The notes under the pieces: generated by a model
The model's database searches: none
What the model saw: the letters and a program-made list of their open reading frames with translations, nothing else
Told to the model about the DNA's origin: nothing
Position numbers and translations under genes: made by a program
NCBI RefSeq assembly: GCF_000497125.1
Contig: NC_090597.1
Location: 124,001 to 188,000, forward strand
Direction of reading: 5' to 3'
DNA: 64,000 bases
Origin: Spironucleus salmonicida
Taxonomy: Eukaryota
In this document: positions 1 through 30,741 of the stretch, piece by piece
Position numbering within the stretch: the first letter of the stretch is position 1
How the letters are laid out: each line of letters begins with the position of its first letter

Positions 1-147
1 ATACTAAGAAATACTTTCAACTTTATACTATATTCGCATAAAAGATTAATTGGTCATTAAATAGTCTTCACTTTGTCACTTATATTACAACAGTAGATAA
101 ATGCTCGGCACAAAGTTATTCAGAGAGATGCTTATTTCCTAGGATTT

Positions 148-898
148 TCACTAAACTTCCTATTTCACCTTCCATGTATCGCTTTCTAGTCCACTGCAGC
201 CTCTTTTGACCAATTAGTACTACCTATTTATTAAAATCATCACAATAACAGAAAAACCTACAAGAGCAACTGAGATTACGAATATAATCCCAACGTTAAC
301 TTTTATTTCATAACTGCAGTACCTGATGCAGAATCCTCCAGTTTTGACACTCCAAATAGTTGCTATAACCGTATAAGGTACAGTTCTGCTAAAGATCCAT
401 ACAGTTGTAGCATATGTCGCTAATTATGACTTTGTAATGTTTACAGACCTATCTTTCTCCGAAAATGGAGTAATTCCAGCCATGCAAAGTTACACTATTG
501 AGGCTAGCTAAGTTGAGATCTTTCAACGTAAAGTAGGTCAGGCAAGCAGTATACTCGTTGTAATCGTAGGTGGTACAGTTTCTCTGGCTGTTTTAGCACC
601 TGTACACGGCGATGATGTCGATATCCTTGCAGTACTGGTTAATTTACAGCGTATTATATTCTAGAATAAGATATTTTAGATCACTGACGAACAGGTAGGG
701 GCCGCTGCACTTCAGGTAGATAATCGACAAAGAACATACCGCACAGTTCACCAGCTCACCGCAGGAGAGTTACTGCATTAATCCAGTTTTAACGCACTGG
801 GAGCCCTGACATAGCTGATTTAGGTAGCTTTCATATTTTGCCAGACACGTGCCGTTCTAAATGTATTTTAAGCTATTTTTGGATGAAAAGTAGCCAAT
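148..898 (-). pseudogene. Decayed CRMP fragment, paralog of the 17287/20377 genes
   Basis: Minus strand (code 6) reads IGYFSSKNSLKYIQNGTCLAKYESYLNQLCQGSQCVK..LSCGELVNCAVC..NQYCKD, aligning to QGYFPAKNGEKCIRNGTCLVTQDCGLNQFCQGSKCVK..VSCGELLNCTSC..NQYCKD. Many Cys>Tyr changes; frameshift before the TM segment VGIIFVISVALVGFSVIVMILI; ends TAGTGA at 148-150; no start codon. Confidence 0.75.
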
Positions 899-4947: not shown

Positions 4948-4984
4948 CCCGTCGCCCCCGCTCCCCCGATTTTCCCCTTCAAAA
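4948..4984 (+). promoter_or_regulatory. C-rich element immediately upstream of the H2A start
   Basis: cccgtcgcccccgctcccccgattttccccttcaaaa-ATG in an otherwise very AT-rich flank. Near-identical at the other two H2A copies, and a similar C-rich run precedes the GC-rich CRMP at 32343. C-rich upstream motifs are reported for Spironucleus. Confidence 0.5.
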
Positions 4985-5344
4985 ATGGCCATTGACAACA
5001 AAGCCAAGTCCAGATCCACCCGTGCCGGTATCATCTTCCCCGTCGGTCGTATCCACAGGCATCTCAAGGAGGGCCGCTACGCCGACCGTATCTCCTCCGA
5101 CGCCCCCGTCTACATGGCCGCCATCCTCGAGTCCGTCATCGACGAGGTGTTCAAGGAAGCCCTCAACCAGAAGGACAAGAAGTCCACCAAGCGTATCACC
5201 CCCAACAACATCGTGAACGCCATCCGCAAGGACAAGGAGCTCAACGAGATCTTCAAGGACGTCGTCATCCGCGACGGCGGTGTCGCCAGACTCGAGGACG
5301 AGAAGAAGCACACCTCCAAGTCCAAGAAGTCCCAGGACCAGTGA
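4985..5344 (+). CDS. H2A: Histone H2A (119 aa), C-terminal SQDQ
   Basis: SRSTRAGIIFPVGRIHRHLK, APVYMAAILE and KRITP motifs; GC-rich codon usage; stop within CAGTGA. Confidence 0.97.
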   Translation: MAIDNKAKSRSTRAGIIFPVGRIHRHLKEGRYADRISSDAPVYMAAILESVIDEVFKEALNQKDKKSTKRITPNNIVNAIRKDKELNEIFKDVVIRDGGVARLEDEKKHTSKSKKSQDQ

Positions 5345-5363
5345 TATATTCTTGTTTACCCTG

Positions 5364-5545
5364 TCACTCCCTCTCGCCCAGGTACTCCGCCACCATGCGA
5401 ATCCCGGCGTCCAGCCGCTGCAGCGCGACGCGCATCCCGAGCTGGTCCGCCGTTCCCAGCACGTCCTTCTCCATGGACGTGAACCGCTGGGCCAGCTGCA
5501 GAATGTCGTGCGCGATGATCGTCACCGGGTCGATCAGTGTGGCCT
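5364..5545 (-). pseudogene. 5'-truncated fragment of the 126-aa hypothetical gene convergent with H2A
   Basis: Matches the 3' part of 30361-30741 and breaks off at the duplication boundary. Confidence 0.85.
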
Positions 5546-9439: not shown

Positions 9440-11093
9440 TAAGGAGTGAGCAGACTACATAGGCTCAGCATGTATTATGCGACCACAGCATATGGTTCTG
9501 ATGGCTAGAGGGCATGATGTGGGCTCCATCGATTTTGAATAAAATACACAGGACTTCCTGCTATATAGCAATCTTGTAAAGCCTGGTGGAGGGATGGAAG
9601 GGGGAATGGTTGGAATAAAACGAAAAATGGAAAGTAAATGAAAATGGATCGGGATCGTGCTGAAATGCCGCAGCGGGCACCTAGTCATACTCTAAAAGAT
9701 GAGGGTCGTGAAATGTTGTGAGATTCCAAAATGGGATCTAGCATGCCGATAAGTGGATTCCAGACTGAGAGTACCCAATATTTCTATATTTAGTCTGTCT
9801 TGGAAGTTTACAGCTGCTTCCAGAGCTTCCATTATCGCCTTCTCGACCTATATTTAGCAACATCATTAAACTTTTGTCACTCCTACATCCCTGCAGACTG
9901 CTCTTCAGTCGCAGATGCCGCTTTAGACTTCTTCATATACCAGAAAATACCACCTACAAGCATACCTACAACTAGCAGGACCGCGATCACGATGCCGGCA
10001 ACAGCACCACCTGAGAGTTTGTTAGATTCCGCCTCGCCACGTATGAAGCACAACGAGCCAACCTGCTCGGCATCATCTGTGCAGGTCGAGCATACTTCGT
10101 TTTCGAGCTTGTACCCAACCATGCATGCTCCACACTTGTTGGTGTTCTAGCTATCGCAGGAGGCGCAGTTGCTAGCGGCCCCACACTTACAATCGGTGAT
10201 CTGGTCGAGCCCGCCGCAGTTGGCCGCACTTCCATTCACGCACGCGTTACCATTGGTCAGCTCACTACAATTTGCCTAGCAGGTCTGGTTGATGGTCATC
10301 TGGTGCCCATCCTCACAGGTATCGCAGACATCTGTACTCTGAGAACAGGTTTTGCACTTCGCCTCGCATTTTATGCAGATAGCTTTCATCATTATGTATC
10401 CCTCGACGCACACGGAGCAGGAGTCGTCCATCGCCTTCTTGTACCCAGCTACGCAGGTACCACATTTTACGGCTTCGCCGCTATCACATGTCGCGCAGTG
10501 GACGGCAACATTACACTGGCATTGCTCGGTAGTGTTATCCTTGCAGGCAGCGCAGGCCCCATCCTTGATTAAAAAGTTATCTTTGCAGATCTGGCACACG
10601 TCCTTGTTATCCGCGCAGTTTGCGCAACCATCAGGGCACGCTTGGCACTCTTAGCCCTACAAGACGAATCCTGCGATGCAGCTTCTACAGGTGCTAACCA
10701 TCCCTGCACAGGTCGCGCAGTTGCTCGTACAGTCCCTGCATATTGTGTCGCATACTTGGTTCATGGAGCAGGAATTGTCATCCACCGTACATTTCTTCTC
10801 GCATTTGCCATCCGTGATCTCATAGCCGTCCTTGCATTCCGTGCAGGCGTCCTTGCTCACGGAGCAGGTCTTGCAGTTCCTATCCGCGCATGCCACGCAG
10901 GTCTCGCTACCGGCCGACCCGGACTTGAAAAATCCCGGCAGGCACGACTGGCACGGGGAGGCGCCATCCGGGTCAAAATTGTTGACGCAGGTGCAGGCCT
11001 CAGTTTGCGAGGGAGTACAGGCGGTGCAGGCGCCTCCCCCCCCCCAGAATGTAGCCGTTGGCACAGGACGTGCAGGTACTAGCACTATCACAA
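9440..11093 (-). repeat. Inverted repeat 1, right arm
   Basis: Reverse complement of 7149-8858; mirrored ORFs in the track (8176..8415 vs 9883..10122). Confidence 0.95.
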
Positions 11094-11710
11094 ACGCTGC
11101 AGTTTGGTTGGCAGTCAGTACATATTTTGGGATTGCCAGAGCTCTCAAAGAAGCCGACCTTGCATTTAGAGCATTGTGGGGTAGAGTTCAAATCGAAGCC
11201 TCCAAAACAGGCTCCACAAGAATCAATATCACCACCACAAAAGAGACAATTTTTAGCATTATCGCAAACGCACGGAATCGGTTGGTCGCCTGCACAGGTT
11301 TGGCAGACCCCTGCAGCCATGATGTTCCCGTTTGCGCAAATGCCACATTTAGTCAATCCTGAATCGCAGGTGGAGCAGTTTACGGCAGTTCCGCAAGTGC
11401 AATTTTTGGTTGCATCCGCGAAGCACATTGTACATTCATTGCCATTAAGAGCATTTCCACTGACACATTCTGAGCAGTTAGTAGCAGATCCAGAGCACTT
11501 ATCACATTTTTCATTACATTTTACGCAAGAGGTGTTGCTTGAAAAGGTGCCATCTGGGCATGTTAAGCACTTATCTGAATCACCTGCGGAACAGGTGAGG
11601 CAGGAGTCGTGGCATGGAATGCAGTCCGTTGGAAAATTTGTTGCATCGGCGGGACAGTAAGTTTTCTCAGGGCATGAAGTGTCCGCAGCTGCAGCGCATT
11701 GGGACGTCAT
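9877..11710 (-). pseudogene. CRMP with intact 5' part, frameshifted at a G10 run (11036-11045)
   Basis: MTSQCAAAADTSCPEKTYC... open to CANGYILGGG, then out of frame. The downstream frame continues with the same CxxC/TM/tail as 7203-8421 minus 20 codons. Could be a homopolymer sequencing error. Confidence 0.8.
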
Positions 11711-11820
11711 TTGGAGCGTAATGATTCATGACAATTATTCTGATAAAATAAAATAAAATAATAAGTTTTGATGTTTTATTGTTTTTTGAAGATAATTGAT
11801 TTGCGTATTTTTAGTAGTAG

Positions 11821-11842
11821 ATATATATATATATATATATAT
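11821..11842. repeat. (AT)11 microsatellite
   Basis: atatatatatatatatatatat about 110 bp upstream of the 11710 start. Confidence 0.9.
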
Positions 11843-12935
11843 GCGGTAATTTGATTAAAAAAACATAGAATTATTAAAATATGATAACAATATAAAAGTT
11901 ATTAATAATAGAAATGATATGTAAAGTGTAATATGATATTAATTTGATATAAATTATTTTGGATTATAAGTAATAATTTATAATATAAAAATGAAGTTTC
12001 TAGATAAAACAATATTTATAATAAATAGAAATAGTATTATTATATAATTTTATACAAATATTTTGAGATTAAATGTTAAAAATTAAAGAATAAATATTAT
12101 CTGTATCATGAAAATAATAAATATATTCATCTAGATCTATGTGTAATACAAAGATACTAGGGAATCGAATATATATAGTAATGGTATCGATAGTAAGTAA
12201 ATACTGCAGGTTATATATATTCAGTTTAGAGTCCATATTAGCAATACTAGTCATTCATTTTCTTGCTAAGATGATTGTATAGCGAAATTAATTGTAACAA
12301 GATAACAGAAAACGTTGTAATTTAGATAATAATTATGATATATTAATGTATATATAAGTTGAATGAATTCTTTTGGGGAACATAAATTATTAGAATTCTA
12401 CAAACTATTTCATAATATCTAGTTTGCTACCACTATGAAATTTCTTACCAATTCTTATTCTTACATTATATTATACGAAAAAATAGTGATTTAGGTTTAG
12501 AAATATGAACATTATCATGAATTATATATGATTTATATGTATTGAGAAGAGAAATTTATTATAATCTATTAATGTTACGAATAAATTTAGAACTTAGGGA
12601 GATTTTCTGTATTTTTATGTGGATTACTTATCAATCTATTCTAGAAATATAGTCCAAGCCAAATAAATATTTAGATTAACAGCATAAATAACTTTTATTA
12701 AATTTAAAGAAATGCATTATTGTACATCAAAATCTTTCACTTCTAACAATTAAAAGGAAATTGCTTTAAATTGTTCTAGTATAAATTAGATTCTGCAATC
12801 TTCGATTTATCTAAGTATTTCATAGTTCTTTAGAATAGAGAAGTTAAGTAGTCCTCCTAGTCGCAAATATAATATAATTATTGATTATTCTGAAGATGTA
12901 AAATATATTAATTAATTACTAGTGTATATGAATTA

Positions 12936-13781
12936 TCAGTCAGTTCTCAAGTACGGGACAAGTCTGTTTACAATAAAGTCGTCATTATACTTGTAGTCTC
13001 CATGATGTAATTCTGTCTCTTCAAAGAATACTCTGTTCTGTTCGACCATGGATTTTAACCCGAAAGTATCCTATTTATATTCATCACGTTCGTGGTAAAG
13101 TTAAACTTCTGCATCAGTGCCTGCCTTCCATGTACCAAAGAATGCGCTCTACCATGGGGTAATAACCTCATCTGTAGAACCCCCGAACAACACAATTTTG
13201 TCAACAGACATGAAGTTTGCCTTTCTTTGCGGATCATAGTCACGGATATTATCGAGTAAGGGGAGGGATCTCGCCTTCTTAGTGTACGATTTTAATTTGT
13301 ATGGATTTCTCCAGTATTGAGAAGGACCAAGATTTGACTGGGTAAAGCCTTTGTACTACATGTAGAACATAAATCTTTAGACAAATTTAGGCAGATACTA
13401 ACCTTAACACTCAGATTTTACTCCACAAAAGAAACCACCCTGAGGCCCTGAGAGGGAGATGAATCTGACCATTGGGGCCATCTCATGGTTATGCTGCTCT
13501 AACAAAGCTCTCATTAGGTAAGCACCTTAGCTGTGACCAACTCCAATATATCCCCTTGATGTAACATTGTGTTTGGTGATGCATTCTGCAAGAAGATTAA
13601 CCTATTAGGCCACTTCCATAAAAATAGAGTCCCATTCGCCATTTCCGATTTCACAGTTGATTACAGTCGTTTATGGCATCTCTTTTTCTATAACTTATTT
13701 CATATGGGACATATAGTGGGCAGACGAATCAAACCCGTGAATAAGTACTATTGGATACTACGCTAGGAGGATACCAAGCAT
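12936..13781 (-). CDS. Palmitoyl-protein thioesterase (PPT1/PPT2 family alpha/beta hydrolase), 281 aa, paralog A
   Basis: Code 6: MLGILLAQYPIVLIHGFDSSAH..GYIGVGHSQGAYLMRAL..ISLSGPQGG..QYWRNP..DEVITPWQSAFFG..DTFGLK..LHHGD. Ser/Asp/His triad motifs of the PPT family present; no internal TGA. Confidence 0.92.
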
Positions 13782-16700
13782 TTTCTAAATAGTAAATTTT
13801 GTTATTATGTCAGTGGTATCATATTTATTATTAGTAGAGTATAATATTTATACTTAAACTTAAGACTAGGTACAGTATCTGGATAATATATTGTAAAGTA
13901 TGGATAAATTATTTACTTTATTTTGAGAAATATTTTTACAATTTTAACTTTTATCATGAAACTAACGATACATTTACTCAGCATTAGTCTAATGAAATTA
14001 ATAAAATTATATTACTGGCTATATGTTTATTATACTTTACGTTTAAAATTATTTTTGTTAGTATTACCAATGATACATACTCTTCCTGTTATCTTATTTT
14101 TAAGTTGTGTTCTAATATTGTTAATCGGTAGTCTTTTTATTTTATATGTGTTATTGTTAGAATATATTTATTAAACTAAAGCTTAAAATAATAACATTTA
14201 TGTCATTTTATATATTTACATGTTTGCAGATAATTTAATCACAAAATGGTAAAATCCGGAGTAAATTCAACATATTGTCTTATCTTTTATATAACTATTA
14301 AGATATAATTTTGAGTAATAAATATAATCACAATTTATATAGAAAATATAATATAGTCGGATACAATATATAAATTGTATACTTTGCATAATTCTTAAAT
14401 GTATACTACTAGCGTCAGAATTATAAAAGTATTGTCATTTTATTTCACTTGTAAAACAATTAAAAAAACATTTAATTTCGGAAAGAGATATCTTATAGTT
14501 AGTAATAATGTTAATAGAATTTTATCACATTCCGGCCAATAAAATACATTAATTGTAGATTCTGATATATAACATTTATTTTTAATAATATATGCTGCTA
14601 TTATATTCATTGTGATGCACTAACTATTTTATTACGCCAGATTTGAAGGATATATTTAGAAATTATTAGTTAATCATGATAATGTTTTTATATAAGAATA
14701 AAAATATTTACTTAACATAATTCTTACGAGATGATAAATTATTATTTACTAAGATTTTATTTTGTAAATTATTAATTTCACAAAATACTTTCTTATTTGT
14801 AGTGAAAATTTAATATATAATAATTTAAATTAATTATATAATGATTAATATTATTATATGTCCCATGAGCTCATAAAATAATTAACATAATAAATTTTAT
14901 TTAAAATAAAGTTTCTTCTATAGTGTTATAAAATATAGCATAACTCTTAATAAATATTGTATATAATCCAAATAATTTATATTAAACTTAAGTTATTTAT
15001 ATTTTCGAAATTGTATTACCAAGTACATATGGTATACTCTTATTAAATTAGATATGTTTATTCATCGCAGCGCTGAACACAATAAAATGTTAAAGAATTC
15101 TTAGTTTTATATGCACATTTTTGTTTTCTAAATAATTTCACATTTAAGATCAATTTATAATGATAACTACGACAAATTTGAGTATCAATACATTAAAATA
15201 TTAATAATTTATATATAATTTTATAAATTATTAAACTAGTAATGGATAATTGATATTCTGTTAATCCGCTTCTATAATTAGCATCGATTCACTAACTATT
15301 ATTATGTTATGCGAAATATCATAACTCGATATTTTGAAAATTTTCAATTATATTATTATAAAATTTCAATAAACTTTGATTTAATTGCTTGTAAAGTAAA
15401 AATTATAAGATTAACTGCATAAAAACTGTATATTTTTATATGATTAATATTAAGTTTTAGTTTACGAATGGTATTACATAGCCATTAAAGGAAATTGTAA
15501 TTAAAATAGGCTAGAAGTAAATAATATTAATTGAATATAAAATGATACTTATAGATTTACTAGTAAGATGGTTATTAAAAGTAGTAGCTTCATTTATATT
15601 TATTTCTAAATCAATATATATATATATATAATATTTCATTTAAAGTAATGCGATTTTAGTAATATAATTATTATATTTATTACTGGTTGTAATTTAAATT
15701 TAATGTATTATTTATTTAAATTCTGATTATAAATATTCTTAGAGGAATACTTCTGGAAATATTTATAATCTAAGAATACCATACAACTGATAATTAATAA
15801 ACTAAATTAAAGCTATTTCTTACAATTGCATTCACATTTTTATACCAGTTAAATAAGTTTGATAATATTAGTTTTTAATAACAATTTTTCTTAATGATTA
15901 ATATTTTTATTATCAAATTCATGTTTAAGTATTATATAAGAAATATATACTCCATAGTTAATTGGAAAAATTATTATAAAATTAATGATATTCTTAGAAT
16001 TTATGTTTAATGATAAAGAATCACATAATTAGGAATAATTTATTATTAACATATTTTTTGAAAATAAGCATTCATATAATTATTTAATATATAATTAAGA
16101 TTATAAATAAGTTTATTGCAAAAATATTATACTTAAAACAAATTAAAAGATAAAATGTTCTAAAATATTATGATTAATTAGTTTGCATTGCCTAAAGATA
16201 AATTTTTAACGACAAATCCCATAACTATATCAAGTAACTGTACTTATTCGCTGTTAATAATAATTTATTATTTCAAGAATTGATAGGATATATCTGAATA
16301 TTTATTAAACTTTAAATTCACTGCAGCAAAGTTTTAAAGCAGTATTTTTCAATATTTTAATAGCGATCACAAGAATATATGGAGAAAGGAAATATAATTA
16401 TAAATTTGGAAATAGTTTTAACTGTCTTAAGTGTAATATTGTTATAACTATACTAGAATTTTTGTACTTAATAAATATTTCAAATAAGTAAACAAAAATT
16501 AATCAAAATCTACTATCAACCTAGATTAATCTGATAAAATATTATATCTCAAAAATAAGCGTGTACCAACCCATCCTTAATTATAATAAACCAATTTTAA
16601 CTACCTTTCATTATAAATATCGTTTCATATATAAACTTTACCAATAAGTATTCTATCCTTAAAAAATTACCAGCTAGGCCTTCATTTACTAATATTTTTA

Positions 16701-18194
16701 TATAAACCTAAGCAATAACTAAATTTTAACCATAAATTACTAAATTTGCTAAAGTCGTCATTTACCAAATTATTCTTTTTACCTATTACTTATAAAAATT
16801 TATTATTATAAACATATAATATTAAGTATATTTTTGCTACTCGAAAAATTATTTGCTGAATTACGCAGCATTAGTCGAATACTATTGAAGAAAATACTAT
16901 ATTACCTTATGATATGTGTAATAAAGCTAATCTATATAACACCAAAAATAAGGAATTTCCTGCAAGTAGCCGTACCAAGTCTCCGAACTACCTCTAAATT
17001 TTCACAGAATACACTGTGCAGGACACTTACGTAAACCTCCAGAGTAGGCTCTCCTGAGACTTATACAATGATAGAACCGACTTTCCAGGCCCATCGTAGT
17101 TTGCGCACCGTACGCGCATACTAATTACACTTTCTGCAAGGGAATTTGATGCAGTTCGTGCCTTGTTGGCTACCATCCCAAGGGCGGAAAACCATTCAAG
17201 AAGATTATCTATTAAGAGTTTCACAATGACCAGCTCTGCGATTGACCGAAATTGCCTCGGGGATGACCTGAAACTACAAGAACTTCATGATTCAGAAATG
17301 CAGGATCTGTGGCAAAAAGGCTCTAGTAAGCTGCATAGATTGCACGAAAATTCCCGAAGGAAAATTCTGTAACTGCTATCACTCGCGAATTTAGAATTGC
17401 CTAGCCTGTAACTAAATAACTGGCAACTGTTCTAATTGCCTGTAGGGGTATTTTCCAGCCAAAAATGGGGAGAAGTGCATCCGTAACGGAACCTGCCTGG
17501 TAACACAGGACTGCGGTCTGAACCAGTTCTGCTAGGGCTCTAAGTGCGTTAAAGGGGATCTGGCGCACCCGGTCTCCTGCGGCGAGCTGCTGAACTGCAC
17601 GTCCTGCGTTTCGCCGTTCTTCTGCCTGAGGTGCAGCGGCGACTACCACCTCGGGGAGGACCTGAAGTGCCTCACACCTCGCTGTGAGACGCTTGGGCTG
17701 AACCAGTACTGCAAAGACGTCAACGTCCCCGCAGCGTGCCCTGGCCCGTTCGCGTGCAGGTGCCCGAACCAGAGAGACCACTGCGCGACCTGCGATTCCG
17801 ACGGCTGTGCGACCTGCCTGGCTGGGTTCGCACTGAGCAAGCACGGCTGTACGCGGAACGTGTGCACGTCCTCGGCTGACTGCCTCTTCGGCAGCTTCTG
17901 CGCCGAGAAGGGCTGTCAGGGCTGCGAGAGCATCGGTAGCGGCGGGTACTGCAACTGCGGTGCGCTGGTGCAGAACTGCGCGCTCTGCGGCGATGGCGTA
18001 TGCCTGAAGTGCTAGCACGGCTCGTAGCTGACCCAGGGCTACTGCGTGATCACGGACTCATCCGACGGCGCGGTGGACGTGAAGCTGATGATAGAGATTT
18101 CGGTTGCTATCATTATCGTCGTGATCGGCGTCACTCTCATCATCCTGTTCGTGATATTTAAGAAGTACTCGCCTAAGCAAAATGGGTTCGAAAA
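13741..18194 (+). repeat. Inverted repeat 2, left arm, ~4.45 kb (partner 19470-23923)
   Basis: Reverse complement of 19470-23923 with coordinate sum 37664 throughout. Only two mismatches noticed (13822, 13826), although ~3 kb is very AT-rich and apparently non-coding. Confidence 0.95.
16960..17286 (+). pseudogene. Decayed 5' portion of the adjacent CRMP (mirrored at ~20378-20704)
   Basis: Broken Cys repeats with TGA stops and frame changes, e.g. VVCAPYAHTNYTFCKGI*CSSCLVGYHPKG and SGMT*NYKNFM. Confidence 0.5.
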
Positions 18195-18309
18195 AATTGG
18201 CGCATAAGACGAAATAACACCGAGACTAATGGATAATTCGCAGAATAAGTTATTAGAATTTAGTTTGTCCCATAATGATGAAGGTTCTAGCACTCTCGTT
18301 GAATAATGA
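17287..18309 (+). CDS. CRMP, 340 aa from first ATG after the decayed region
   Basis: MIQKCRICGKK.. CxxC repeats, TM LMIEISVAIIIVVIGVTLIILFVIF, tail KKYSPKQNGFEKIGAQDE..STLVEQ*. No in-frame TGA. Confidence 0.75.
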
Positions 18310-19087
18310 TAAACTTATAATTAATATTTATTATATAATTTACTAACTGAGTTTAACACCTAACCTCACTATTATACATACATATTTTAATGTCTAAGTG
18401 CGTCTAAATATTAAATTATAGTTAAATTATATACAATAGTTTATAAAGACTTTATTCATAAGCTGTGTGTATGATTTGTTAATGTATCAGAAAAAAAATG
18501 TTATTAGTTTCGTAAATTTTCCTCAATTAATATAAAATATTATATAATAATATATAAAATATATAATTTACCATTTATTAATTTACAAATTTCACAACAT
18601 ATTATTCCTATGTTATCCAGATTTAGTTGCATAAAATATTAAATATATTTTCTATTAATGTGTAATACATTAATAAATAACGATTCTTAGATTGAATTTT
18701 AACAGCTTGAGTAATTATAACTGCTAAAGAACCAAATTATTCGTTTTTATTTTTATCAGTTCAAAATTAGTATTAATTCAATTAAATAAATTGATATAAT
18801 AAATAAAATAAAATTATTGAAGCATGCATGAAACTTTATTCCATAAATAATATTTTTTTAATAATACAGTCATCACAATCTAGGCTAAGCGCTAATTTCA
18901 TTAGATTTATTCATATAATTAGTTATAATATAGTAAATTATCTATAATAATATTATAGTATATATGAGTTGCTTAATAATTCTTCGTTTAAATATTGAAA
19001 TGGAATTATGAAATAGATTTTTGCTGATTCATATTTTGGTAACCAATTCATTGTGTTTAATTATAATGTGATATTTATTTGAGTCTG

Positions 19088-20377
19088 TCAGCTAATTTTA
19101 AAATACTTTTATTTTTTGTGAAAGTTTCTTCCACGTAACTAGGATTTATGTTGCAATGATTGAAATCTATAATCATTGTAATTCATAATTTTATGATATT
19201 TTAATTAAATTCTATAAAGTTATATTTAATTACTTTGTATCCAGTTGCAATCTATAGATTTAAGAAGTGATTGTTAATAATTATAATAATTTATTGTCTT
19301 TATGAAATATAATTTTCGCCATTAGATAAATAAAACTTACAAACAACCCACCTAGCACTATATTACTAGAGAGCTATAATTATCTTCTTTACTACTCAAG
19401 CTTAAATCTAAAGTTCGCTTGTATTAATTGCACATCATATTATCGGATACGCTAAGTTTGGATTCCATCTTTTCGAACCCATTTTGCTTAGGCGAGTACT
19501 TCTTAAATATCACGAACAGGATGATGAGAGTGACGCCGATCACGACGATAATGATAGCAACCGAAATCTCTATCATCAGCTTCACGTCCACCGCGCCGTC
19601 GGATGAGTCCGTGATCACGCAGTAGCCCTGGGTCAGCTACGAGCCGTGCTAGCACTTCAGGCATACGCCATCGCCGCAGAGCGCGCAGTTCTGCACCAGC
19701 GCACCGCAGTTGCAGTACCCGCCGCTACCGATGCTCTCGCAGCCCTGACAGCCCTTCTCGGCGCAGAAGCTGCCGAAGAGGCAGTCAGCCGAGGACGTGC
19801 ACACGTTCCGCGTACAGCCGTGCTTGCTCAGTGCGAACCCAGCCAGGCAGGTCGCACAGCCGTCGGAATCGCAGGTCGCGCAGTGGTCTCTCTGGTTCGG
19901 GCACCTGCACGCGAACGGGCCAGGGCACGCTGCGGGGACGTTGACGTCTTTGCAGTACTGGTTCAGCCCAAGCGTCTCACAGCGAGGTGTGAGGCACTTC
20001 AGGTCCTCCCCGAGGTGGTAGTCGCCGCTGCACCTCAGGCAGAAGAACGGCGAAACGCAGGACGTGCAGTTCAGCAGCTCGCCGCAGGAGACCGGGTGCG
20101 CCAGATCCCCTTTAACGCACTTAGAGCCCTAGCAGAACTGGTTCAGACCGCAGTCCTGTGTTACCAGGCAGGTTCCGTTACGGATGCACTTCTCCCCATT
20201 TTTGGCTGGAAAATACCCCTACAGGCAATTAGAACAGTTGCCAGTTATTTAGTTACAGGCTAGGCAATTCTAAATTCGCGAGTGATAGCAGTTACAGAAT
20301 TTTCCTTCGGGAATTTTCGTGCAATCTATGCAGCTTACTAGAGCCTTTTTGCCACAGATCCTGCATTTCTGAATCAT
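19088..20377 (-). CDS. CRMP, inverted copy with a different cytoplasmic tail and stop-loss extension (429 aa)
   Basis: Identical to the 17287 gene up to NGFEK, then MESKLSVSDNMMCNQYKRTLDLSLSSKEDNYSSLVIQ. TGC at 19355-19357 where the twin has TGA; next TGA at 19088-19090. Confidence 0.65.
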
Positions 20378-23300
20378 GAAGTTCTTGTAGTTTCAGGTCA
20401 TCCCCGAGGCAATTTCGGTCAATCGCAGAGCTGGTCATTGTGAAACTCTTAATAGATAATCTTCTTGAATGGTTTTCCGCCCTTGGGATGGTAGCCAACA
20501 AGGCACGAACTGCATCAAATTCCCTTGCAGAAAGTGTAATTAGTATGCGCGTACGGTGCGCAAACTACGATGGGCCTGGAAAGTCGGTTCTATCATTGTA
20601 TAAGTCTCAGGAGAGCCTACTCTGGAGGTTTACGTAAGTGTCCTGCACAGTGTATTCTGTGAAAATTTAGAGGTAGTTCGGAGACTTGGTACGGCTACTT
20701 GCAGGAAATTCCTTATTTTTGGTGTTATATAGATTAGCTTTATTACACATATCATAAGGTAATATAGTATTTTCTTCAATAGTATTCGACTAATGCTGCG
20801 TAATTCAGCAAATAATTTTTCGAGTAGCAAAAATATACTTAATATTATATGTTTATAATAATAAATTTTTATAAGTAATAGGTAAAAAGAATAATTTGGT
20901 AAATGACGACTTTAGCAAATTTAGTAATTTATGGTTAAAATTTAGTTATTGCTTAGGTTTATATAAAAATATTAGTAAATGAAGGCCTAGCTGGTAATTT
21001 TTTAAGGATAGAATACTTATTGGTAAAGTTTATATATGAAACGATATTTATAATGAAAGGTAGTTAAAATTGGTTTATTATAATTAAGGATGGGTTGGTA
21101 CACGCTTATTTTTGAGATATAATATTTTATCAGATTAATCTAGGTTGATAGTAGATTTTGATTAATTTTTGTTTACTTATTTGAAATATTTATTAAGTAC
21201 AAAAATTCTAGTATAGTTATAACAATATTACACTTAAGACAGTTAAAACTATTTCCAAATTTATAATTATATTTCCTTTCTCCATATATTCTTGTGATCG
21301 CTATTAAAATATTGAAAAATACTGCTTTAAAACTTTGCTGCAGTGAATTTAAAGTTTAATAAATATTCAGATATATCCTATCAATTCTTGAAATAATAAA
21401 TTATTATTAACAGCGAATAAGTACAGTTACTTGATATAGTTATGGGATTTGTCGTTAAAAATTTATCTTTAGGCAATGCAAACTAATTAATCATAATATT
21501 TTAGAACATTTTATCTTTTAATTTGTTTTAAGTATAATATTTTTGCAATAAACTTATTTATAATCTTAATTATATATTAAATAATTATATGAATGCTTAT
21601 TTTCAAAAAATATGTTAATAATAAATTATTCCTAATTATGTGATTCTTTATCATTAAACATAAATTCTAAGAATATCATTAATTTTATAATAATTTTTCC
21701 AATTAACTATGGAGTATATATTTCTTATATAATACTTAAACATGAATTTGATAATAAAAATATTAATCATTAAGAAAAATTGTTATTAAAAACTAATATT
21801 ATCAAACTTATTTAACTGGTATAAAAATGTGAATGCAATTGTAAGAAATAGCTTTAATTTAGTTTATTAATTATCAGTTGTATGGTATTCTTAGATTATA
21901 AATATTTCCAGAAGTATTCCTCTAAGAATATTTATAATCAGAATTTAAATAAATAATACATTAAATTTAAATTACAACCAGTAATAAATATAATAATTAT
22001 ATTACTAAAATCGCATTACTTTAAATGAAATATTATATATATATATATATTGATTTAGAAATAAATATAAATGAAGCTACTACTTTTAATAACCATCTTA
22101 CTAGTAAATCTATAAGTATCATTTTATATTCAATTAATATTATTTACTTCTAGCCTATTTTAATTACAATTTCCTTTAATGGCTATGTAATACCATTCGT
22201 AAACTAAAACTTAATATTAATCATATAAAAATATACAGTTTTTATGCAGTTAATCTTATAATTTTTACTTTACAAGCAATTAAATCAAAGTTTATTGAAA
22301 TTTTATAATAATATAATTGAAAATTTTCAAAATATCGAGTTATGATATTTCGCATAACATAATAATAGTTAGTGAATCGATGCTAATTATAGAAGCGGAT
22401 TAACAGAATATCAATTATCCATTACTAGTTTAATAATTTATAAAATTATATATAAATTATTAATATTTTAATGTATTGATACTCAAATTTGTCGTAGTTA
22501 TCATTATAAATTGATCTTAAATGTGAAATTATTTAGAAAACAAAAATGTGCATATAAAACTAAGAATTCTTTAACATTTTATTGTGTTCAGCGCTGCGAT
22601 GAATAAACATATCTAATTTAATAAGAGTATACCATATGTACTTGGTAATACAATTTCGAAAATATAAATAACTTAAGTTTAATATAAATTATTTGGATTA
22701 TATACAATATTTATTAAGAGTTATGCTATATTTTATAACACTATAGAAGAAACTTTATTTTAAATAAAATTTATTATGTTAATTATTTTATGAGCTCATG
22801 GGACATATAATAATATTAATCATTATATAATTAATTTAAATTATTATATATTAAATTTTCACTACAAATAAGAAAGTATTTTGTGAAATTAATAATTTAC
22901 AAAATAAAATCTTAGTAAATAATAATTTATCATCTCGTAAGAATTATGTTAAGTAAATATTTTTATTCTTATATAAAAACATTATCATGATTAACTAATA
23001 ATTTCTAAATATATCCTTCAAATCTGGCGTAATAAAATAGTTAGTGCATCACAATGAATATAATAGCAGCATATATTATTAAAAATAAATGTTATATATC
23101 AGAATCTACAATTAATGTATTTTATTGGCCGGAATGTGATAAAATTCTATTAACATTATTACTAACTATAAGATATCTCTTTCCGAAATTAAATGTTTTT
23201 TTAATTGTTTTACAAGTGAAATAAAATGACAATACTTTTATAATTCTGACGCTAGTAGTATACATTTAAGAATTATGCAAAGTATACAATTTATATATTG

Positions 23301-23923
23301 TATCCGACTATATTATATTTTCTATATAAATTGTGATTATATTTATTACTCAAAATTATATCTTAATAGTTATATAAAAGATAAGACAATATGTTGAATT
23401 TACTCCGGATTTTACCATTTTGTGATTAAATTATCTGCAAACATGTAAATATATAAAATGACATAAATGTTATTATTTTAAGCTTTAGTTTAATAAATAT
23501 ATTCTAACAATAACACATATAAAATAAAAAGACTACCGATTAACAATATTAGAACACAACTTAAAAATAAGATAACAGGAAGAGTATGTATCATTGGTAA
23601 TACTAACAAAAATAATTTTAAACGTAAAGTATAATAAACATATAGCCAGTAATATAATTTTATTAATTTCATTAGACTAATGCTGAGTAAATGTATCGTT
23701 AGTTTCATGATAAAAGTTAAAATTGTAAAAATATTTCTCAAAATAAAGTAAATAATTTATCCATACTTTACAATATATTATCCAGATACTGTACCTAGTC
23801 TTAAGTTTAAGTATAAATATTATACTCTACTAATAATTAATGTGATACCACTGACATAATAACAAAATTTACTATTTAGAAAATGCTTGGTATCCTCCTA
23901 GCGTAGTATCCAATAGTACTTAT
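19470..23923 (-). repeat. Inverted repeat 2, right arm
   Basis: Reverse complement of 13741-18194. Confidence 0.95.
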
Positions 23924-24728
23924 CCATGGTTTTTCATCATCCGCATACTATATGTCTTAGATGAAATCTATCATATCACGAGAAATGCCTGATGCGCCAG
24001 TAATCAACTGTGAGATTGGAAATGGTTATTGGACTTCCATATTCATGGATGTCTCTAAGTAGGTTAATCTTCTTGCATAATGTATCATAGACCATAATGT
24101 TAGCGAAAGTGGATATATTGGTGTTGGTCACAGTTAAGGTGCTTACCTAATGAGAACCTTGTTGGAGGAGCACAATCACAAGATGTCCCCAATGATAAGA
24201 TTAATCTCCTTATCAGGGCCGCAGGGTGGCTTTTTCTGTGGAGTAAAATCAAAATGCAAAGGCCAATACCTCAGTTGGTTCTAAAAGAAAATAGTATTCT
24301 GGTTAGAGTATTCAAGATTAGGCCAATATGCTGTTGTTGCTTCTTAGTATTGGAGAAATCCGTATAAATTATAGTCGTATGCAAAATATGCGAAGTCACT
24401 CCCATTAGTTGACAATATCCGTGACTTTGACAATTAGAGAAAAACAAACTTCATGTCCGTTGATAAAATAGTGCTATTTGGTGGACCTACTGATGAGGTT
24501 ATTAGTCCATGGTAAAGTGCTTTCTTTGGAACTTGGAAGGATGGGACTGATGCAGAAGTTGACCTTTATAATGAACGCGAGGAATATAAACAAGATACTT
24601 TTGGTTTAAAATCTATGGTCGAACAGAATAGAGTATTCTTTGAAGAAACAGATTTGCATCATGGAGATTATATAACTGACGAAAATTTCATTGTTACCAG
24701 ACTTGTCCCATATTTAAAAACAAACTGA
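23883..24728 (+). CDS. Palmitoyl-protein thioesterase (PPT1/PPT2 family), 281 aa, paralog B
   Basis: MLGILLAQYPIVLIHGFSSSAYY..GHSQG (24126-24140, Q encoded by TAA)..SGPQGG..QYWRNP..DEVISPWQSAFFG..LHHGD; TGA 24726-24728. Confidence 0.92.
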
Positions 24729-25144
24729 GAATTTATTTATTATTAAAATATAATACTTCTGACAGCTAAATTATTATACAGTAAAAAGTAACCATAGAAT
24801 CGTTAAAAATATCTCACTAACTACATATATTTCCAAATTTGAAAAATCAGCAAATAATTAATTATGAGATTTAATTGCCTAGCTTCAAGGCAGGTTACTA
24901 TCTACAATTTGTATCAAATATCGTTTACAATAGTATAAGTATCATTATATCACGTGCAACAAACTATAAACTATTAAACTCACAGATATCCAAACCAATA
25001 CTAAGAAATACTTTCAACTTTATACTATATTCGCATAAAAGATTAATTGGTCATTAAATAGTCTTCACTTTGTCACTTATATTACAACAGTAGATAAATG
25101 CTCGGCACAAAGTTATTCAGAGAGATGCTTATTTCCTAGGATTT

Positions 25145-25895
25145 TCACTAAACTTCCTATTTCACCTTCCATGTATCGCTTTCTAGTCCACTGTAGCCTC
25201 TTTTGACCAATTAGTACTACCTATTTATTAAAATCATCACAATAACAGAAAAACCTACAAGAGCAACTGAGATTACGAATATAATCCCAACGTTAACTTT
25301 TATTTCATAACTGCAGTACCTGATGCAGAATCCTCCAGTTTTGACACTCCAAATAGTTGCTATAACCGTATAAGGTACAGTTCTGCTAAAGATCCATACA
25401 GTTGTAGCATATGTCGCTAATTATGACTTTGTAATGTTTACAGACCTATCTTTCTCCGAAAATGGAGTAATTCCAGCCATGCAAAGTTACACTATTGAGG
25501 CTAGCTAAGTTGAGATCTTTCAACGTAAAGTAGGTCAGGCAAGCAGTATACTCGTTGTAATCGTAGGTGGTACAGTTTCTCTGGCTGTTTTAGCACCTGT
25601 ACACGGCGATGATGTCGATATCCTTGCAGTACTGGTTAATTTACAGCGTATTATATTCTAGAATAAGATATTTTAGATCACTGACGAACAGGTAGTGGCC
25701 GCTGCACTTCAGGTAGATAATCGACAAAGAACATACCGCACAGTTCACCAGCTCACCGCAGGAGAGTTACTGCATTAATCCAGTTTTAACGCACTGGGAG
25801 CCCTGACATAGCTGATTTAGGTAGCTTTCATATTTTGCCAGACACGTGCCGTTCTAAATGTATTTTAAGCTATTTTTGGATGAAAAGTAGCCAAT
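25145..25895 (-). pseudogene. Decayed CRMP fragment (duplicate of 148-898)
   Basis: Same sequence as 148-898 apart from isolated substitutions. Confidence 0.75.
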
Positions 25896-28212
25896 TGGCA
25901 CATCCTGCCGATGTGGCGCAAAATATAACATAAAGCCAAATTGCGCGGGCTGCGACGGGGAGAGCTGCAGCAGCTGCACGCACGGTTACTTCTTCACAGA
26001 TGGAACGTGCAATATTTGCATCTCAAACTGCCTAATTTGCAGCGGTCCGTTAAATTGCAGCCAGTGCCTAAACGGCTATTTTGAGACACCGGAACGCTGC
26101 CTGCCGTGCGCTGCGAGCATGGAAATCGGCGTAAAATGCCAGTGCGGAAATGCAAAACTAGAGAACTGCGCTGAATGCAATGGGAATTCGTGCGCTAAGT
26201 GCAGGAGCGAATTCAAGCTGATTTCGGGAGGCTGCATTAAGGACCAGTGCTAGAGCGATGCAGACTGTGCAAAACCGGAGTTCTGTGCGGTTAGTCCCAG
26301 TGAGGTGAATTTGTGCAAGGCCTGCGGGAGCATGTGTCAATCCTGCACAGAAAATGAAAATAAGTGCTTAAGCTGCAAGAATGGTATGTTTTTGGACTAG
26401 AATGTGTGTAAAACGTGTGGCACTAGCATAGCTGCTGGGGTTTAGTGTTAGTGCGGCGATATTCTGGTTGATAATTGCGGCAAATGTGGTGATAATGTCT
26501 GCGAAATCTGCGTCAGCGGGTTCAGATTAGAGGCTGATAAATGCACTTTGTGCTCAGAAGAATAGTAATTAGGACGTTACTGCACGTGCTAAGGCTTTAG
26601 CATAACAAATTGCATCTCCTGTGATGATATTGGGTGCAGCGCGTGCAAGACCCCTTTGACACTTAAGGGGTAGGTATGTCTAGCAGATGAGTGCTTAATA
26701 GATTCTGAATGTAAAAGAGGGCAGTTTTGTTAAACAAGTAGTATTGTGACTAATGCATGCGTGAATTGTGCGGATAGCCGTGATTAATGTGCAGGTTCAG
26801 CTGAGAACTGCATATCCTGTGGTCCCAACAAGTTTTTAGTTAACGCAGTTTGCATAAATTGCAGCTTTAATTAGGAGCCGGGTGCTGCTTGCAACTGCGG
26901 TTTAATGAAGATTGAAAATTGTGGCTTATGCGGTGATAATGTGTGTAATTTGTGCATAAATGGATACCGTCCAGATAGTAACGCATGTGTTGCCTGCTCT
27001 ATAACTCAACCAATAGGCAGTTCCTGCGACTGCCAGGGATAAGGAGTGTAAAACTGTGTTTCGTGTGATTCTACAGGCTGTCGTGCGTGTTTAGGTGAGT
27101 TCAAGCTGATATAAAGAGAGTGCGTCGCCGATGAATGCCAGACTAATGAGGAATGCGTAAAAGGCTAGTTCTGCTAGATCAGCGCAAACTTAGCAAACCT
27201 GTGCGAGAAGTGCTCAGAAACCTGTGAGACCTGCTAAACTTCAGCAAATAACTGCCTTAGCTGCAAAACTGACAGCTACTTACAAGAGAACCAATGCTAA
27301 ACCTGCGCGTTCAGCTAACCGCTAGGAAAGATCTGCACATGCGGCTCTGCAAATGTGGAAAACTGCGACTAGTGCATGGAAAACATCTGCAAGGCCTGTA
27401 TAGAGAACTACAGTCTGCAACGCACCGCCTGCGTACTATGTTAGAATTCCTTACCAATTGGCTCAAGTTGCACGTGTCAGGGGCTGCAGATTCCCAATTG
27501 CGCAAAATGTAACGACTCCGGCTGCGCTGAGTGCGTACTAGAGTCATAATTGGTCAACGGTGTATGCGTGCAGAACTTGTGCAGCGAGAGCGTAAAGTGC
27601 CCAACGGGGCAGATTTGCGAGATATTACCAGGAAAACCGAATGTCTGCAAGGTGTGCACACCAAATTGTCAATAGTGCAGTATGGTCGGATCCTGCGATT
27701 TGTGCCAGAGCGATTTCTTTAAAAACGGGGTAGCCTGCACGAGATGCGTAGAGATCAGTAGCGAAGAGTGCAACTGCGCCGGAACAATGATAAAATAATG
27801 CGCTAGATGCGATAAAGACTAATGCAGTTTATGTGCGATCGGCGCAATCTTCAAGGATGGAGCGTGCGTAAGCTGCTCAGAAATGCAGTTGGGAGGCGTC
27901 TGCATCTGCGGAAAACTCGTAGCAAACTGCGTTTCGTGCGATAGCAACGGCGGCTGTGGTACATGTCTGGATGGATTGAGAAACGTAGATGGGCAGTGCG
28001 TGGACTGTACTAAAAATCCAGAGCTTTGCAAGACAAATTTAGGTACAAATCAGATAATATATATCGTACTTGGCGTTATAGCGGGAGTTTGTTTGATCAT
28101 AGGAATTGTTATTGTAGTTAAGATAGTGAAAAAGCGCAAATCTATTAAAAGTGATGAGTATAATAGCGCTGAGCTACTGACGAGGAATAATTCCAGCAGC
28201 TAGATGTACTGA
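25858..28212 (+). CDS. CRMP, 784 aa, intact
   Basis: No in-frame TGA found in code 6; CxxC repeats, C-terminal TM, tail KKRKSIKSDEYNSAELLTRNNSSSQMY*; TGAGTGA at the end. Confidence 0.9.
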
Positions 28213-29981
28213 GTGAAGAATTTGCATGGTCGGGTTACTGATACGTAATATTTGAATAATAAAAATAAATGGTCGATTTTAGCAGTAACTATGGAGAAAA
28301 TTATAGATTATTGGAGTAGGAGAGATTTAATTAGGTAAATCGACCTACTGGTAGCTAGTAGAAGCAATTTAGTTAAGGTGGCGGAATCATAATTCAAAGG
28401 TATAACAGCGGATACTAGTTCATGATGATTTTGGTGGCTCTTATTATATATGTTTAAGTGAATTTTGGTTAGGACTATATGAAAATGGGATTTAATTAAA
28501 GGACCACAACAAGCTGGAAAATTCACAAAAATTAATGTCTATAGTTTATTAAGTTAAGTACTATTTAATATCAAAATAAAGCGATTAAACTAGTTAATAC
28601 TTTAAAACAAATTATTGTTGGTAACATCTGAGTTTCACGTACTTTCGGCATGCAACTTGTATATTTAAATATTAAGGTAGCGTCGTAAGTAGTTTATTTT
28701 ATTAGTTAAATCTAAATATACCTTTTACATATAAATTTATTATAAATATCTGTTACTAGTATACCTGTTAATACTTTACATCTGGTACATATTTAAATTT
28801 TTCATTATTTTAAATTAAAAGTAATATTATATGCATATAATACGTATGAAATGAAACTGTAAACTTAGTGTAATTATATATTGCTTTAGGTAATAAGAAA
28901 CTTTTATATTATTCTGGTGTAATTAAAATATTCTAGAAAAGGTATTGACAATAATTTAAGTTGAAAATATCAACTTAATTTTTTATCTTCCGTTATGACA
29001 ATTGATTAGTTTTATTTTATACTGATTTAAATTGGACTAGTGTTAATCTCTATTATATTATTGTATATTTTTCTTATAACTTATTTCATCTTAGTTTTAT
29101 AAATATACGAATTTATTTTCAGTATACTATAATATATTCAACTTCAACCCTACATATACACTGTTTTCTTACCACTTAAAATATTTATTAATTCTAAAAA
29201 TAAACCTACTATTTACAGGAATTTCTGATTTCCTAATTTTAATTTAATAATTATAACATCAGTATACTTCACTTTATATAAAATCGAATTTTTATGAAAA
29301 TGTATTCTAATATAATATTTTATGATTTGTTAATAAATCAAAATTAAACTTAAATTTAGTTGCACCAGTTTCCTATCAAAATAGCATATTATAATATATC
29401 TATAAAACTACATTTTAACCTATATCAGGAGCTAAAAATGAATACACATAACTTAAGGAGAATGAAAAGTGATCGTTTAGGTGAAGGCTGTCGTATACCT
29501 CTCATCCCACATTTAAATTGTATGACTGAGGAACAGCCTAGACTAATCTAAATGAGCGATATTCGTTTGGCGTAATGCAATTTGTCAATTTCGGATAATT
29601 TGAGTTTACCCGAACCTGATTTTGTAGATATATAGGCAGTTTTGAATTAAGATTGGTAGTATCAGTGAATTTAATAGTTTGAAGTTGTTTTCGAGTAATG
29701 ATTTAATTTTAGGAAGAAAAGTACTTTAATCTCAAATTTGACGTTGGTTAGAAGTGATTTTAATGGTTAAATACATATATAGATCTAGCTGAGATAAAAT
29801 ATTACAACTAATATTTCTAGCTACACAAAATTAAACTTTTTACTAAAGCATTTATATTAGTTAAAAGTTGAGGAATTTATACTAATATGTATAATAGTAC
29901 TAATATAAGATTTTAAGAAATTCGAACCTGCGCGAGTCGCTAGGCCCGGCACCCCCGCTCCCCCGATTTTCCCCTTCAAAA

Positions 29982-30341
29982 ATGGCCATTGACAACAAAG
30001 CCAAGTCCAGATCCACCCGTGCCGGTATCATCTTCCCCGTCGGTCGTATCCACAGGCATCTCAAGGAGGGCCGCTACGCCGACCGTATCTCCTCCGACGC
30101 CCCCGTCTACATGGCCGCCATCCTCGAGTCCGTCATCGACGAGGTGTTCAAGGAAGCCCTCAACCAGAAGGACAAGAAGTCCACCAAGCGTATCACCCCC
30201 AACAACATCGTGAACGCCATCCGCAAGGACAAGGAGCTCAACGAGATCTTCAAGGACGTCGTCATCCGCGACGGCGGTGTCGCCAGACTCGAGGACGAGA
30301 AGAAGCACACCTCCAAGTCCAAGAAGTCCCAGGACCAGTGA
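29982..30341 (+). CDS. H2A: Histone H2A, copy 2
   Basis: Protein identical to 4985-5344. Confidence 0.97.
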   Translation: MAIDNKAKSRSTRAGIIFPVGRIHRHLKEGRYADRISSDAPVYMAAILESVIDEVFKEALNQKDKKSTKRITPNNIVNAIRKDKELNEIFKDVVIRDGGVARLEDEKKHTSKSKKSQDQ

Positions 30342-30360
30342 TATATTCTTGTTTACCCTG

Positions 30361-30741
30361 TCACTCCCTCTCGCCCAGGTACTCCGCCACCATGCGAATC
30401 CCGGCGTCCAGCCGCTGCAGCGCGACGCGCATCCCGAGCTGGTCCGCCGTTCCCAGCACGTCCTTCTCCATGGACGTGAACCGCTGGGCCAGCTGCAGAA
30501 TGTCGTGCGCGATGATCGTCACCGGGTCGATCAGGGTGGCCTGCGACAGCTTCCGCAGCAGGTCGTCTGCCGCCAGCCGCAGCTGGTGCATGGCCGGGAA
30601 GGAGATGATGTGGGTGCTGATTTTCTGCTCGAAGTCGAAGCTGGCAAATTGGGACTGCATACCGATGAGCAGGTTGAGCTTGGAGTTTCTGCTCTCCAGC
30701 ATAGCCTGATAGGCCTCGTCTGCGGCATCTACGCTGCTCAT
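30361..30741 (-). CDS. Hypothetical helical protein, 126 aa, convergent with H2A
   Basis: MSSVDAADEAYQAMLESRNSKLNLL..AEYLGERE*; strong GC3 bias, ATG after aaaat, stop in GAGTGA, 19 bp from the H2A stop. Confidence 0.75.
   Translation of the reverse strand: MSSVDAADEAYQAMLESRNSKLNLLIGMQSQFASFDFEQKISTHIISFPAMHQLRLAADDLLRKLSQATLIDPVTIIAHDILQLAQRFTSMEKDVLGTADQLGMRVALQRLDAGIRMVAEYLGERE

Follow-up and report, generated by a model that had tools for sequence, protein, structure and literature searches.

An inverted gene pair of Spironucleus salmonicida with old diverged borders and arms that were probably overwritten one from the other

Results

Thioesterase and membrane protein genes form a palindrome with near-identical arms

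We examined a 64,000-nucleotide (nt) stretch of the Spironucleus salmonicida genome (RefSeq assembly GCF_000497125.1, contig NC_090597.1, positions 124,001 to 188,000), here called the window, to which all positions below refer. It contains a gene-bearing palindrome, a long inverted repeat whose arms of 4454 nt are separated by a short unique stretch of 1275 nt (18195-19469). Each arm holds the start of a palmitoyl-protein thioesterase (PPT) gene and part of a gene for a cysteine-rich membrane protein (CRMP). A first-pass annotation, made from the letters of the window, had read the structure as an ancient inverted duplication recently overwritten from arm to arm.

A repeat finder run on the window returned two pairs of inverted arms, one of 4805 nt and 98% identity (13393-18197 and 19467-24271) and one of 406 nt and 78% identity (12925-13330 and 24334-24739), and the coordinate sum of 37664 is common to both. 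We compared the arms without gaps, pairing each position x with 37664-x. The left arm of the identical tract (13741-18194) and the right arm (19470-23923), its reverse complement, differ at 2 of 4454 nt (13822 and 13826) and show no insertions or deletions (indels); from 13827 to 18194 there are no mismatches over 4368 nt. Identity per 100 nt is 56-87% for 12900-13799 versus a background of 24-40% left of 12900, and it is 49% in 18200-18299. Boundary alignments reveal abrupt tract ends at 13740/13741 and 18194/18195, where identity steps from 100% to ~75% with no gradient. Thus the sliding identity profile upheld the near identity claimed for the arms, even over ~3 kb of AT-rich DNA.

That AT-rich intergenic DNA (13782-16949; 3168 nt, 19.0% GC) makes up 71% of the tract and has no tRNA, Rfam or Pfam match. 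There were 0 tRNAs in the window and 0 Rfam matches in 11000-26000, and a search for small elements inside the arms gave only four tandem repeats, all short and AT-rich.

Diverged homology continues beyond both arm ends, as had been claimed, with 78% identity on the outer side and 57 of 115 nt alike on the inner side. The outer left flank (12925-13740) aligns with 23924-24739 without gaps at ~75-78% identity, and its differences fall mostly at third codon positions. The exact register of the flanks, stressed in the first-pass annotation, is real, but it means just that no indels occurred in 805 nt of conserved coding sequence and a tail of 115 nt; inside the arms, exact register follows automatically from copying.

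The thioesterases are old paralogues

PPT-a (12936-13781, minus strand, start context AAAatg) and PPT-b (23883-24728, plus strand) form the outer ends of the palindrome. In the standard genetic code in-frame TAA and TAG codons break both frames, and NCBI table 6, in which TAA and TAG encode glutamine, gives proteins of 281 residues that are 75% identical. Both match Pfam PF02089 above the curated cut-off (E 1.2e-55 for PPT-a and 7.2e-53 for PPT-b) over profile positions 1-254 of 254, and the closest database proteins are by name palmitoyl-protein thioesterases of S. salmonicida. The sequence GHSQG, which we take to be the nucleophile motif of the thioesterase with its serine as the presumed nucleophile, is kept in both.

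Both genes are 846 nt long and share only their first 41 nt perfectly, as the first-pass annotation had it; in PPT-a these (13741-13781) are the only part within the identical tract. From nucleotide 42 onward the genes diverge, with differences at 209 of 846 nt (56, 27 and 126 at the first, second and third codon positions) and 71 amino-acid differences. By the Nei-Gojobori method with code 6, synonymous divergence (dS) is 1.39 (1.68 for codons 15-281), non-synonymous divergence (dN) 0.16-0.17 and dN/dS ~0.1. A maximum-likelihood tree of 10 thioesterases places PPT-a and the near-identical database protein P0012 as sister to PPT-b (99/98 support), within a 100/100 S. salmonicida clade that encloses these three and three paralogues from other chromosomes. 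Judged by tree and substitution pattern, PPT-a and PPT-b are evidently each other's closest old relatives, both under purifying selection. Setting thioesterase dS against the arms, a check that the first-pass annotation had proposed, gave 1.39-1.68 in the flank versus 2 of 4454 nt in the arms, an arm identity far above that allowed by the age of the flank.

On another chromosome, thioesterases KAH0577065 and KAH0577074 (P0003 and P0018) lie 9 genes apart and differ at 2 of 281 residues, which suggests a similar recent duplication elsewhere in the genome.

Two truncated CRMP genes share one ectodomain and carry two tails

CRMP-a (17287-18309, plus strand, 340 residues) and CRMP-b (19088-20377, minus strand, 429 residues) stand tail to tail on either side of the unique spacer. 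Their closest paralogues are named cysteine-rich membrane protein 2 of S. salmonicida. Together with the thioesterase matches, these names mark the window as nuclear DNA from that diplomonad. Proteins of this class (CRMP-2) are described as having at least three CXXC/CXC motifs, a C-terminal transmembrane segment and no KKXKK, in the portion of Xu et al. 2014 that defines them (PMC3916229). Likewise, the translations of both genes show many CXXC motifs and a hydrophobic stretch followed by FKKYSPKQ, and lack KKXKK.

CRMP-a is 5'-truncated, and its homology to full-length paralogues of 430 residues starts at their residue 97-101. One of these, P0010, is encoded outside the window and is present twice on the same chromosome (KAH0575804 and KAH0575812); it aligns with CRMP-a and CRMP-b only from its residue 97. 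In both window genes the first 10 residues, MIQKCRICGK, stand in place of ~100 N-terminal residues of the full-length paralogue. The part that follows is a multi-copy GC-rich CRMP2 core (17315-18194, plus strand, 56.9% GC), common to at least four further genes on the same chromosome.

Residues 1-303 of CRMP-b are identical to those of CRMP-a, after which the two proteins part. Tail a (18195-18309, plus strand) consists of 37 cytoplasmic codons and a TGA stop and is 3-4 amino acids away from the tails of the full-length proteins P0010 and P0014. Tail b (19355-19469, minus strand) is homologous to it: 57 of 115 nt are alike versus 32.4 +/- 4.7 in 10,000 shuffles, and no shuffle gave as many. 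Counted by eye from the translations, some 10 of the 37 residues are alike, and the CRMP open reading frames (ORFs) are thus not identical throughout. These figures agree with the earlier description of tails that are strongly diverged yet aligned codon for codon over 37 residues.

At the position of the TGA stop of tail a, tail b has TGC, and translation runs on for 89 further codons into AT-rich DNA, as it does in the database protein P0017. Such read-through is easy, because TGA is the only stop in this code. It takes in the right part (19088-19354) of the unique AT-rich spacer (18310-19354, 19.2% GC). The b-type tail was seen only in CRMP-b and P0017, and a search for other proteins carrying it matched only its own cluster. 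The first-pass annotation had also spoken of two tails on the same ectodomain. The identity of residues 1-303 stands, but the functional reading is weakened, both copies being 5'-truncated and tail b having no stop.

Upstream of the truncated CRMP start lies a segment of 337 nt and 45% GC (16950-17286, mirrored at 20378-20714). It lacks a codon-phase GC signal, none of its 3 ORFs matches Pfam above the cut-off, and contigs from sequencing runs guessed to be RNA, starting at 16874 and 16918, cover it. It may be what remains of an older gene, or else a leader of unusual length.

A decayed CRMP2-like relic on the minus strand (323-895 and 25320-25892), 38% identical to P0010 residues 144-340, adjoins PPT-b on the right and occurs again at the window start; many of its cysteine positions are now tyrosine.

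A twin locus on the same chromosome

What is known of a twin locus comes from protein sequences and from consecutive accession numbers on the same contig. KAH0575818 (P0012) is a PPT-a with S84N, KAH0575819 (P0017) a truncated CRMP with tail b, and KAH0575820 (P0014) a CRMP2 of full length whose tail is of the a type. Across the 293 ectodomain residues in common (CRMP-a residues 11-303), CRMP-a and CRMP-b are identical at the protein level, and so are P0014 and P0017; 3 sites (K21R, I35T and G235S) set the window pair apart from the twin pair. Tails, in contrast, group by type, a with P0014 and b with P0017. As far as sequence can tell, ectodomains that follow the locus and tails that follow the type amount to the classical signature of concerted evolution.

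By accession order, the PPT-a-type gene adjoins the tail-b gene in the twin and the tail-a gene in the window. The simplest account of this tail swap would be that tails and spacer were inverted, in one of the loci, by crossing-over between the inverted cores. Together the comparisons suggest conversion plus inversion. A PPT-a-type gene beside a CRMP with the same truncated N-terminus occurs at two loci (the window and KAH0575818/819), and linkage to PPT-b at one.

The twin also bears on the 11.8-kb symmetry that the first-pass annotation had drawn from 12936 + 24728 = 37664. The coordinates hold, but they do not show that the old structure was a symmetric palindrome; the twin locus suggests that a full-length CRMP2 gene may once have stood on the right side.

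Short-read contigs branch at the tract ends

We compared the window over 12000-19700 with contigs from four runs, two of them DNA and two guessed to be RNA (X5 and X6; X5-X8 were called RNA by guess, and no run is on record as RNA). In both DNA runs a PPT-a flank contig ends at 13770 and an arm contig starts at 13741, an overlap of 30 nt. A further DNA contig (17315-18194) stops at 18194, and another (18267-19499) crosses the spacer and runs 30 nt into the right arm. These breaks fit a branch in a k-mer assembly graph, in which one arm has two continuations and the overlap would equal k-1. The branches in the short-read contigs fall exactly at 13741 and 18194, so at the base level a long-read artefact does not account for the arms. 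Between 13827 and 17314 the DNA contigs show no differences save at 15576 in one of the two runs, and at 13822 and 13826 they carry the letters of the right arm. Contig depth across 13741 (16 versus 30.4 in X1, 290/356 versus 574 in X4) was not taken as a measure of copy number or expression.

The published assembly was built from 161x PacBio RS II reads, for which a read-length figure of 14.6 kbp is given, followed by Illumina-based correction (PMC9509377, in its assembly description). The 4.45-kb arm is well within that figure.

Among the contigs guessed to be RNA, two span PPT-a (12935-13772 and 12955-13796), and X5 and X6 give no cover of the AT-rich interior. In each of the four runs the contigs show a loose end at 17315, which was read as translating to the P0010 sequence that directly precedes the shared part. 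Over the core, the RNA-guess contigs show P0010 variants: 17404 (A40S), 17470 (E62Q via TAA), 17696 (G137E) and 17989 (G235S). The window-type junction appears in separate contigs (471 nt in X5 and 405 nt in X6), which run from 16874 or 16918 to 17344 or 17322.

Within PPT-a, position 13531 (codon 84) reads T for C in contigs of X1, X4 and X5 and has the window's letter in X6. The change produces S84N and turns GHSQG into GHNQG, the same as in the twin protein P0012 (KAH0575818), which would, by its sequence, be without the presumed nucleophile serine. Read variants at 13461 and 13485 were considered as short conversion patches from PPT-b; this idea was rejected, as only 1 of the 2 matches the PPT-b letter, and they resemble ordinary variants or the twin copy's letters.

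Base composition favours one long tract, or very few

Within the window, GC-rich genes lie in intergenic DNA of ~18-25% GC. The AT-rich part of the tract has 19.0% GC versus 19.2% in the unique spacer and 21.5% in the unique DNA left of PPT-a, and third positions of the ORF 17287-18194 reach 75.5%. Duplicated regions of the S. salmonicida genome average 44.7% GC in the part of Xu et al. 2022 that reports them (PMC9509377). With 71% of the arm at 19.0% GC, recurrent GC-biased conversion over the whole arm is not supported. If GC-biased conversion is real, the AT-rich part was rarely converted, which favours a single recent long tract, or very few, on top of frequent exchange restricted to the CRMP core. 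The likeness to Y-chromosome palindromes drawn in the first-pass annotation implies homogenisation that is ongoing, whereas the AT-rich tract has more the look of a single recent long event.

Further palindromes and repeats in the window

A second palindrome (P2; 7305-8861 and 9437-10993) has tail-to-tail VSP-like genes (PF03302) with 2 mismatches in 1557 nt. After gapped alignment its N-terminal parts and outer flank are ~74% alike, and the right copy, with an indel of 4 nt in a run of G plus another deletion, is probably frame-shifted. A third (P3; 29910-31226 and 36151-37467) contains histone H2A-like genes, one of them encoding 119 residues at 29982-30341 (PF00125, E 6e-12), and has 0 mismatches in 1317 nt and an outer flank that is ~69% alike after gapped alignment. 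A tandem copy (4913-5545) differs at 3 sites, and at each of them the two arms of P3 have the same letter.

Positions 1-5545 recur as a direct repeat 24,997 bp further on, at 24998-30542, without gaps and with 20 mismatches. The repeat probably extends to the left of the window, because it starts at base 1. It includes a large CRMP2 gene (861-2660 and 25858-28212) that encodes 599 residues on the left, where TGA at 2658-2660 replaces a cysteine codon of the right copy (784 residues). The 599-residue product was not found in the protein collection, and the gene may be annotated as a pseudogene. The 430-residue CRMP2 genes are KAH0575804, 812 and 820, and 813, right after 812, is a paralogue of the 784-residue CRMP of the direct repeat; this accession order suggests a tandem array of ~8 genes per unit. 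The palindrome lies within this young tandem array in a CRMP-rich region.

Towards the right of the window, 48313-50456 and 57819-60045 form a direct repeat of ~2.2 kb with 77% identity, ~9.5 kb apart.

Discussion

The palindrome is probably an old pair of inverted paralogous units, one arm of which has recently been overwritten with a homology-templated copy of the other. This is what the first-pass annotation had proposed, and the two main observations behind it, old sister thioesterases in the flanks and 2 differences in 4454 nt of arm, bear it out. Selection is ruled out as the cause of the identity, because 3168 nt of non-coding DNA are 100% identical beside near-saturated synonymous divergence. 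A simple fresh duplication, disfavoured by the first-pass annotation as well, is ruled out because homologous, in-frame, diverged flanks lie at both ends.

We infer the following course. Each old unit would have consisted of a thioesterase divergently transcribed from a CRMP2 gene, and the units would have stood tail to tail. Non-reciprocal copying, as a long gene-conversion tract or by break-induced or synthesis-dependent repair, would then have overwritten 4454 bp of one arm in what appears to have been a single event. One tract end would lie in the GC-rich CRMP2 core at the junction of transmembrane segment and tail (18194), and copying would have run across the 5' end of the truncated CRMP and 3.2 kb of AT-rich intergenic DNA to the thioesterase's codon 14 (13741). 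Probably the PPT-a side served as donor, because the linkage of PPT-a and truncated CRMP is found twice and that of PPT-b once. The outcome would be two old, selectively maintained thioesterases that share a promoter and codons 1-14, and a pair of truncated CRMP2 copies in which the same ectodomain is joined to two different old tails. The copying may also have been linked to an inversion of the spacer. S. salmonicida has been reported to be without Dicer, without Argonaute and without RNA-dependent RNA polymerase (RdRP), in the relevant part of PMC3916229.

Several points weigh against this account. The direction and the inversion are read indirectly, from protein sequences and accession order, so that the twin genes may stand in either orientation and unnumbered pseudogenes could intervene between them. 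The right-arm letters at 13822 and 13826 fit a donor on the PPT-a side only if the left arm mutated later. A tract end in sequence of ~75-80% identity would be an unusual resolution site for homologous repair. The order of flank, arm, spacer, arm and flank is that of the assembly, and the reads were compared over 12000-19700, which ends short of the junction of PPT-b and right arm. In addition, the short-read runs may be those used for polishing, in which case they are independent for structure and not for base calls, and polishing could have erased a small number of true differences between the arms.

Concerted evolution in a steady state, of the kind known from sex-chromosome palindromes, would explain the arms by frequent arm-to-arm conversion ever since the old duplication, with tracts that rarely reach the flanks. 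Three palindromes with perfect or near-perfect cores in one window speak for such a process, as does the twin pair P0014/P0017, which is also internally identical over the shared ectodomain. We nevertheless hold it to be unlikely. Most of the tract has the 19.0% GC of unique DNA rather than the 44.7% of duplicated regions or the 56.9% of the CRMP core, the boundary is a step from 100% to ~75% and no gradient, and in the twin just one side seems to carry the AT-rich arm.

Less probable still is a new inverted duplication with no old palindrome behind it, in which a fold-back or template-switch copy of the left arm was joined by chance to an unrelated pre-existing PPT paralogue and a foreign CRMP tail. 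Exact symmetry comes automatically with any copying event, and the region is rich in recent rearrangements, including the direct repeat of period 24,997 bp, whose 5545 nt differ at 20 positions. However, each joint falls within homologous sequence and keeps frame and register; the closest paralogue of PPT-a is PPT-b, which already stands in mirror orientation; and tail b is homologous to tail a and otherwise found only in the twin locus. Two independent chance joints of this kind would be needed, which makes the idea unlikely.

An equally doubtful extension of recent overwriting takes the palindrome as one state of a recombination device, in which spacer-flipping crossovers and long conversion tracts between inverted CRMP2 cores re-assort promoters, N-termini, ectodomains and cytoplasmic tails, with putatively silent truncated genes and full-length copies as partners. 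If this were true, CRMP-a and CRMP-b would be donor cassettes for surface-protein variation by recombination, at work in the reported absence of Dicer, Argonaute and RdRP.

That the arms are really diverged, or one of them chimeric, and were made identical by multi-mapping reads in assembly or polishing is very improbable: base correction with Illumina reads was part of the published assembly and repeat polishing can erase a few true differences, but contigs cover the whole left arm with no differences over 13827-17314 save 15576 in one run and branch at 13741 and 18194, two arm differences outlived polishing, and 4.45 kb is short against the 14.6-kbp read-length figure.

Inverted pairs of surface-protein genes are known from related organisms. 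Giardia intestinalis has 14 identical inverted vsp pairs, which the authors ascribe to duplication alone in the section that describes them (Adam et al. 2010, PMC2996952), and 7 such pairs are reported for G. muris in the corresponding part of PMC7641422. As described there, these are also diplomonad cysteine-rich surface-protein genes, placed tail to tail or head to head, with a unique spacer and abrupt divergence points. In Giardia, however, the ORFs are wholly identical, divergence begins 139-729 bp beyond them, and the ORFs stand 2-4 kb apart. At the Spironucleus locus identity ends inside genes at both ends, spans the promoter and first 14 codons of a second, unrelated gene, and is bordered by old homologous flanks. 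These features in combination require the overwriting of an older pair.

For the human Y palindrome P6, arm-to-arm gene conversion with multi-kilobase tracts and rare inversions is described in the pertinent part of PMC3723533. In such accounts sex-chromosome palindromes resemble our locus as gene-bearing inverted repeats around a short unique spacer, with arms more than 99.9% identical, conversion tracts of several kilobases and rare spacer inversions. Their arms, unlike the mostly AT-rich 4.45-kb arm of Spironucleus, for which one event is favoured, measure tens to hundreds of kb and undergo recurrent GC-biased conversion.

In S. salmonicida duplications of 2 kb or more, with identity of 95% or higher, take up 19.2% of the genome, and gene conversion around GC-rich duplicated CRMP regions has been suggested to expand the surface-protein repertoire, as summarised in Xu et al. 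2022 (PMC9509377). That work concerns the same organism and gene families and, in the text that bears on them, gives genome-wide statistics without palindromes, tract ends in genes or this locus, and its main text does not use the word "inverted". We found no description of Spironucleus palindromes or inverted CRMP pairs in the literature, supplements not being covered, and on gene conversion in S. salmonicida only the 2022 genome note, in the text available, bears on the locus, in general terms. The locus is a well-controlled case of a known kind and not a new kind, clear but not unprecedented. New beyond the first-pass annotation are the truncated CRMP copies, with variants of the full-length paralogue in the RNA-guess contigs, the twin locus, and the AT-rich tract that favours one event.

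With old coding flanks, an AT-rich non-coding interior and a twin in a different state, the palindrome offers unusually clean internal controls for non-reciprocal copying between inverted diplomonad paralogues. It also bears on whether biased conversion builds the GC-rich islands of this genome: the tract that would have been copied once is not GC-rich, and the core that is repeatedly shared is. Such events can fuse the promoter and start of one gene onto an old paralogue and swap ectodomains between tails, and would thus give a concrete route to the mosaic CRMP repertoire that genome papers have inferred only statistically.

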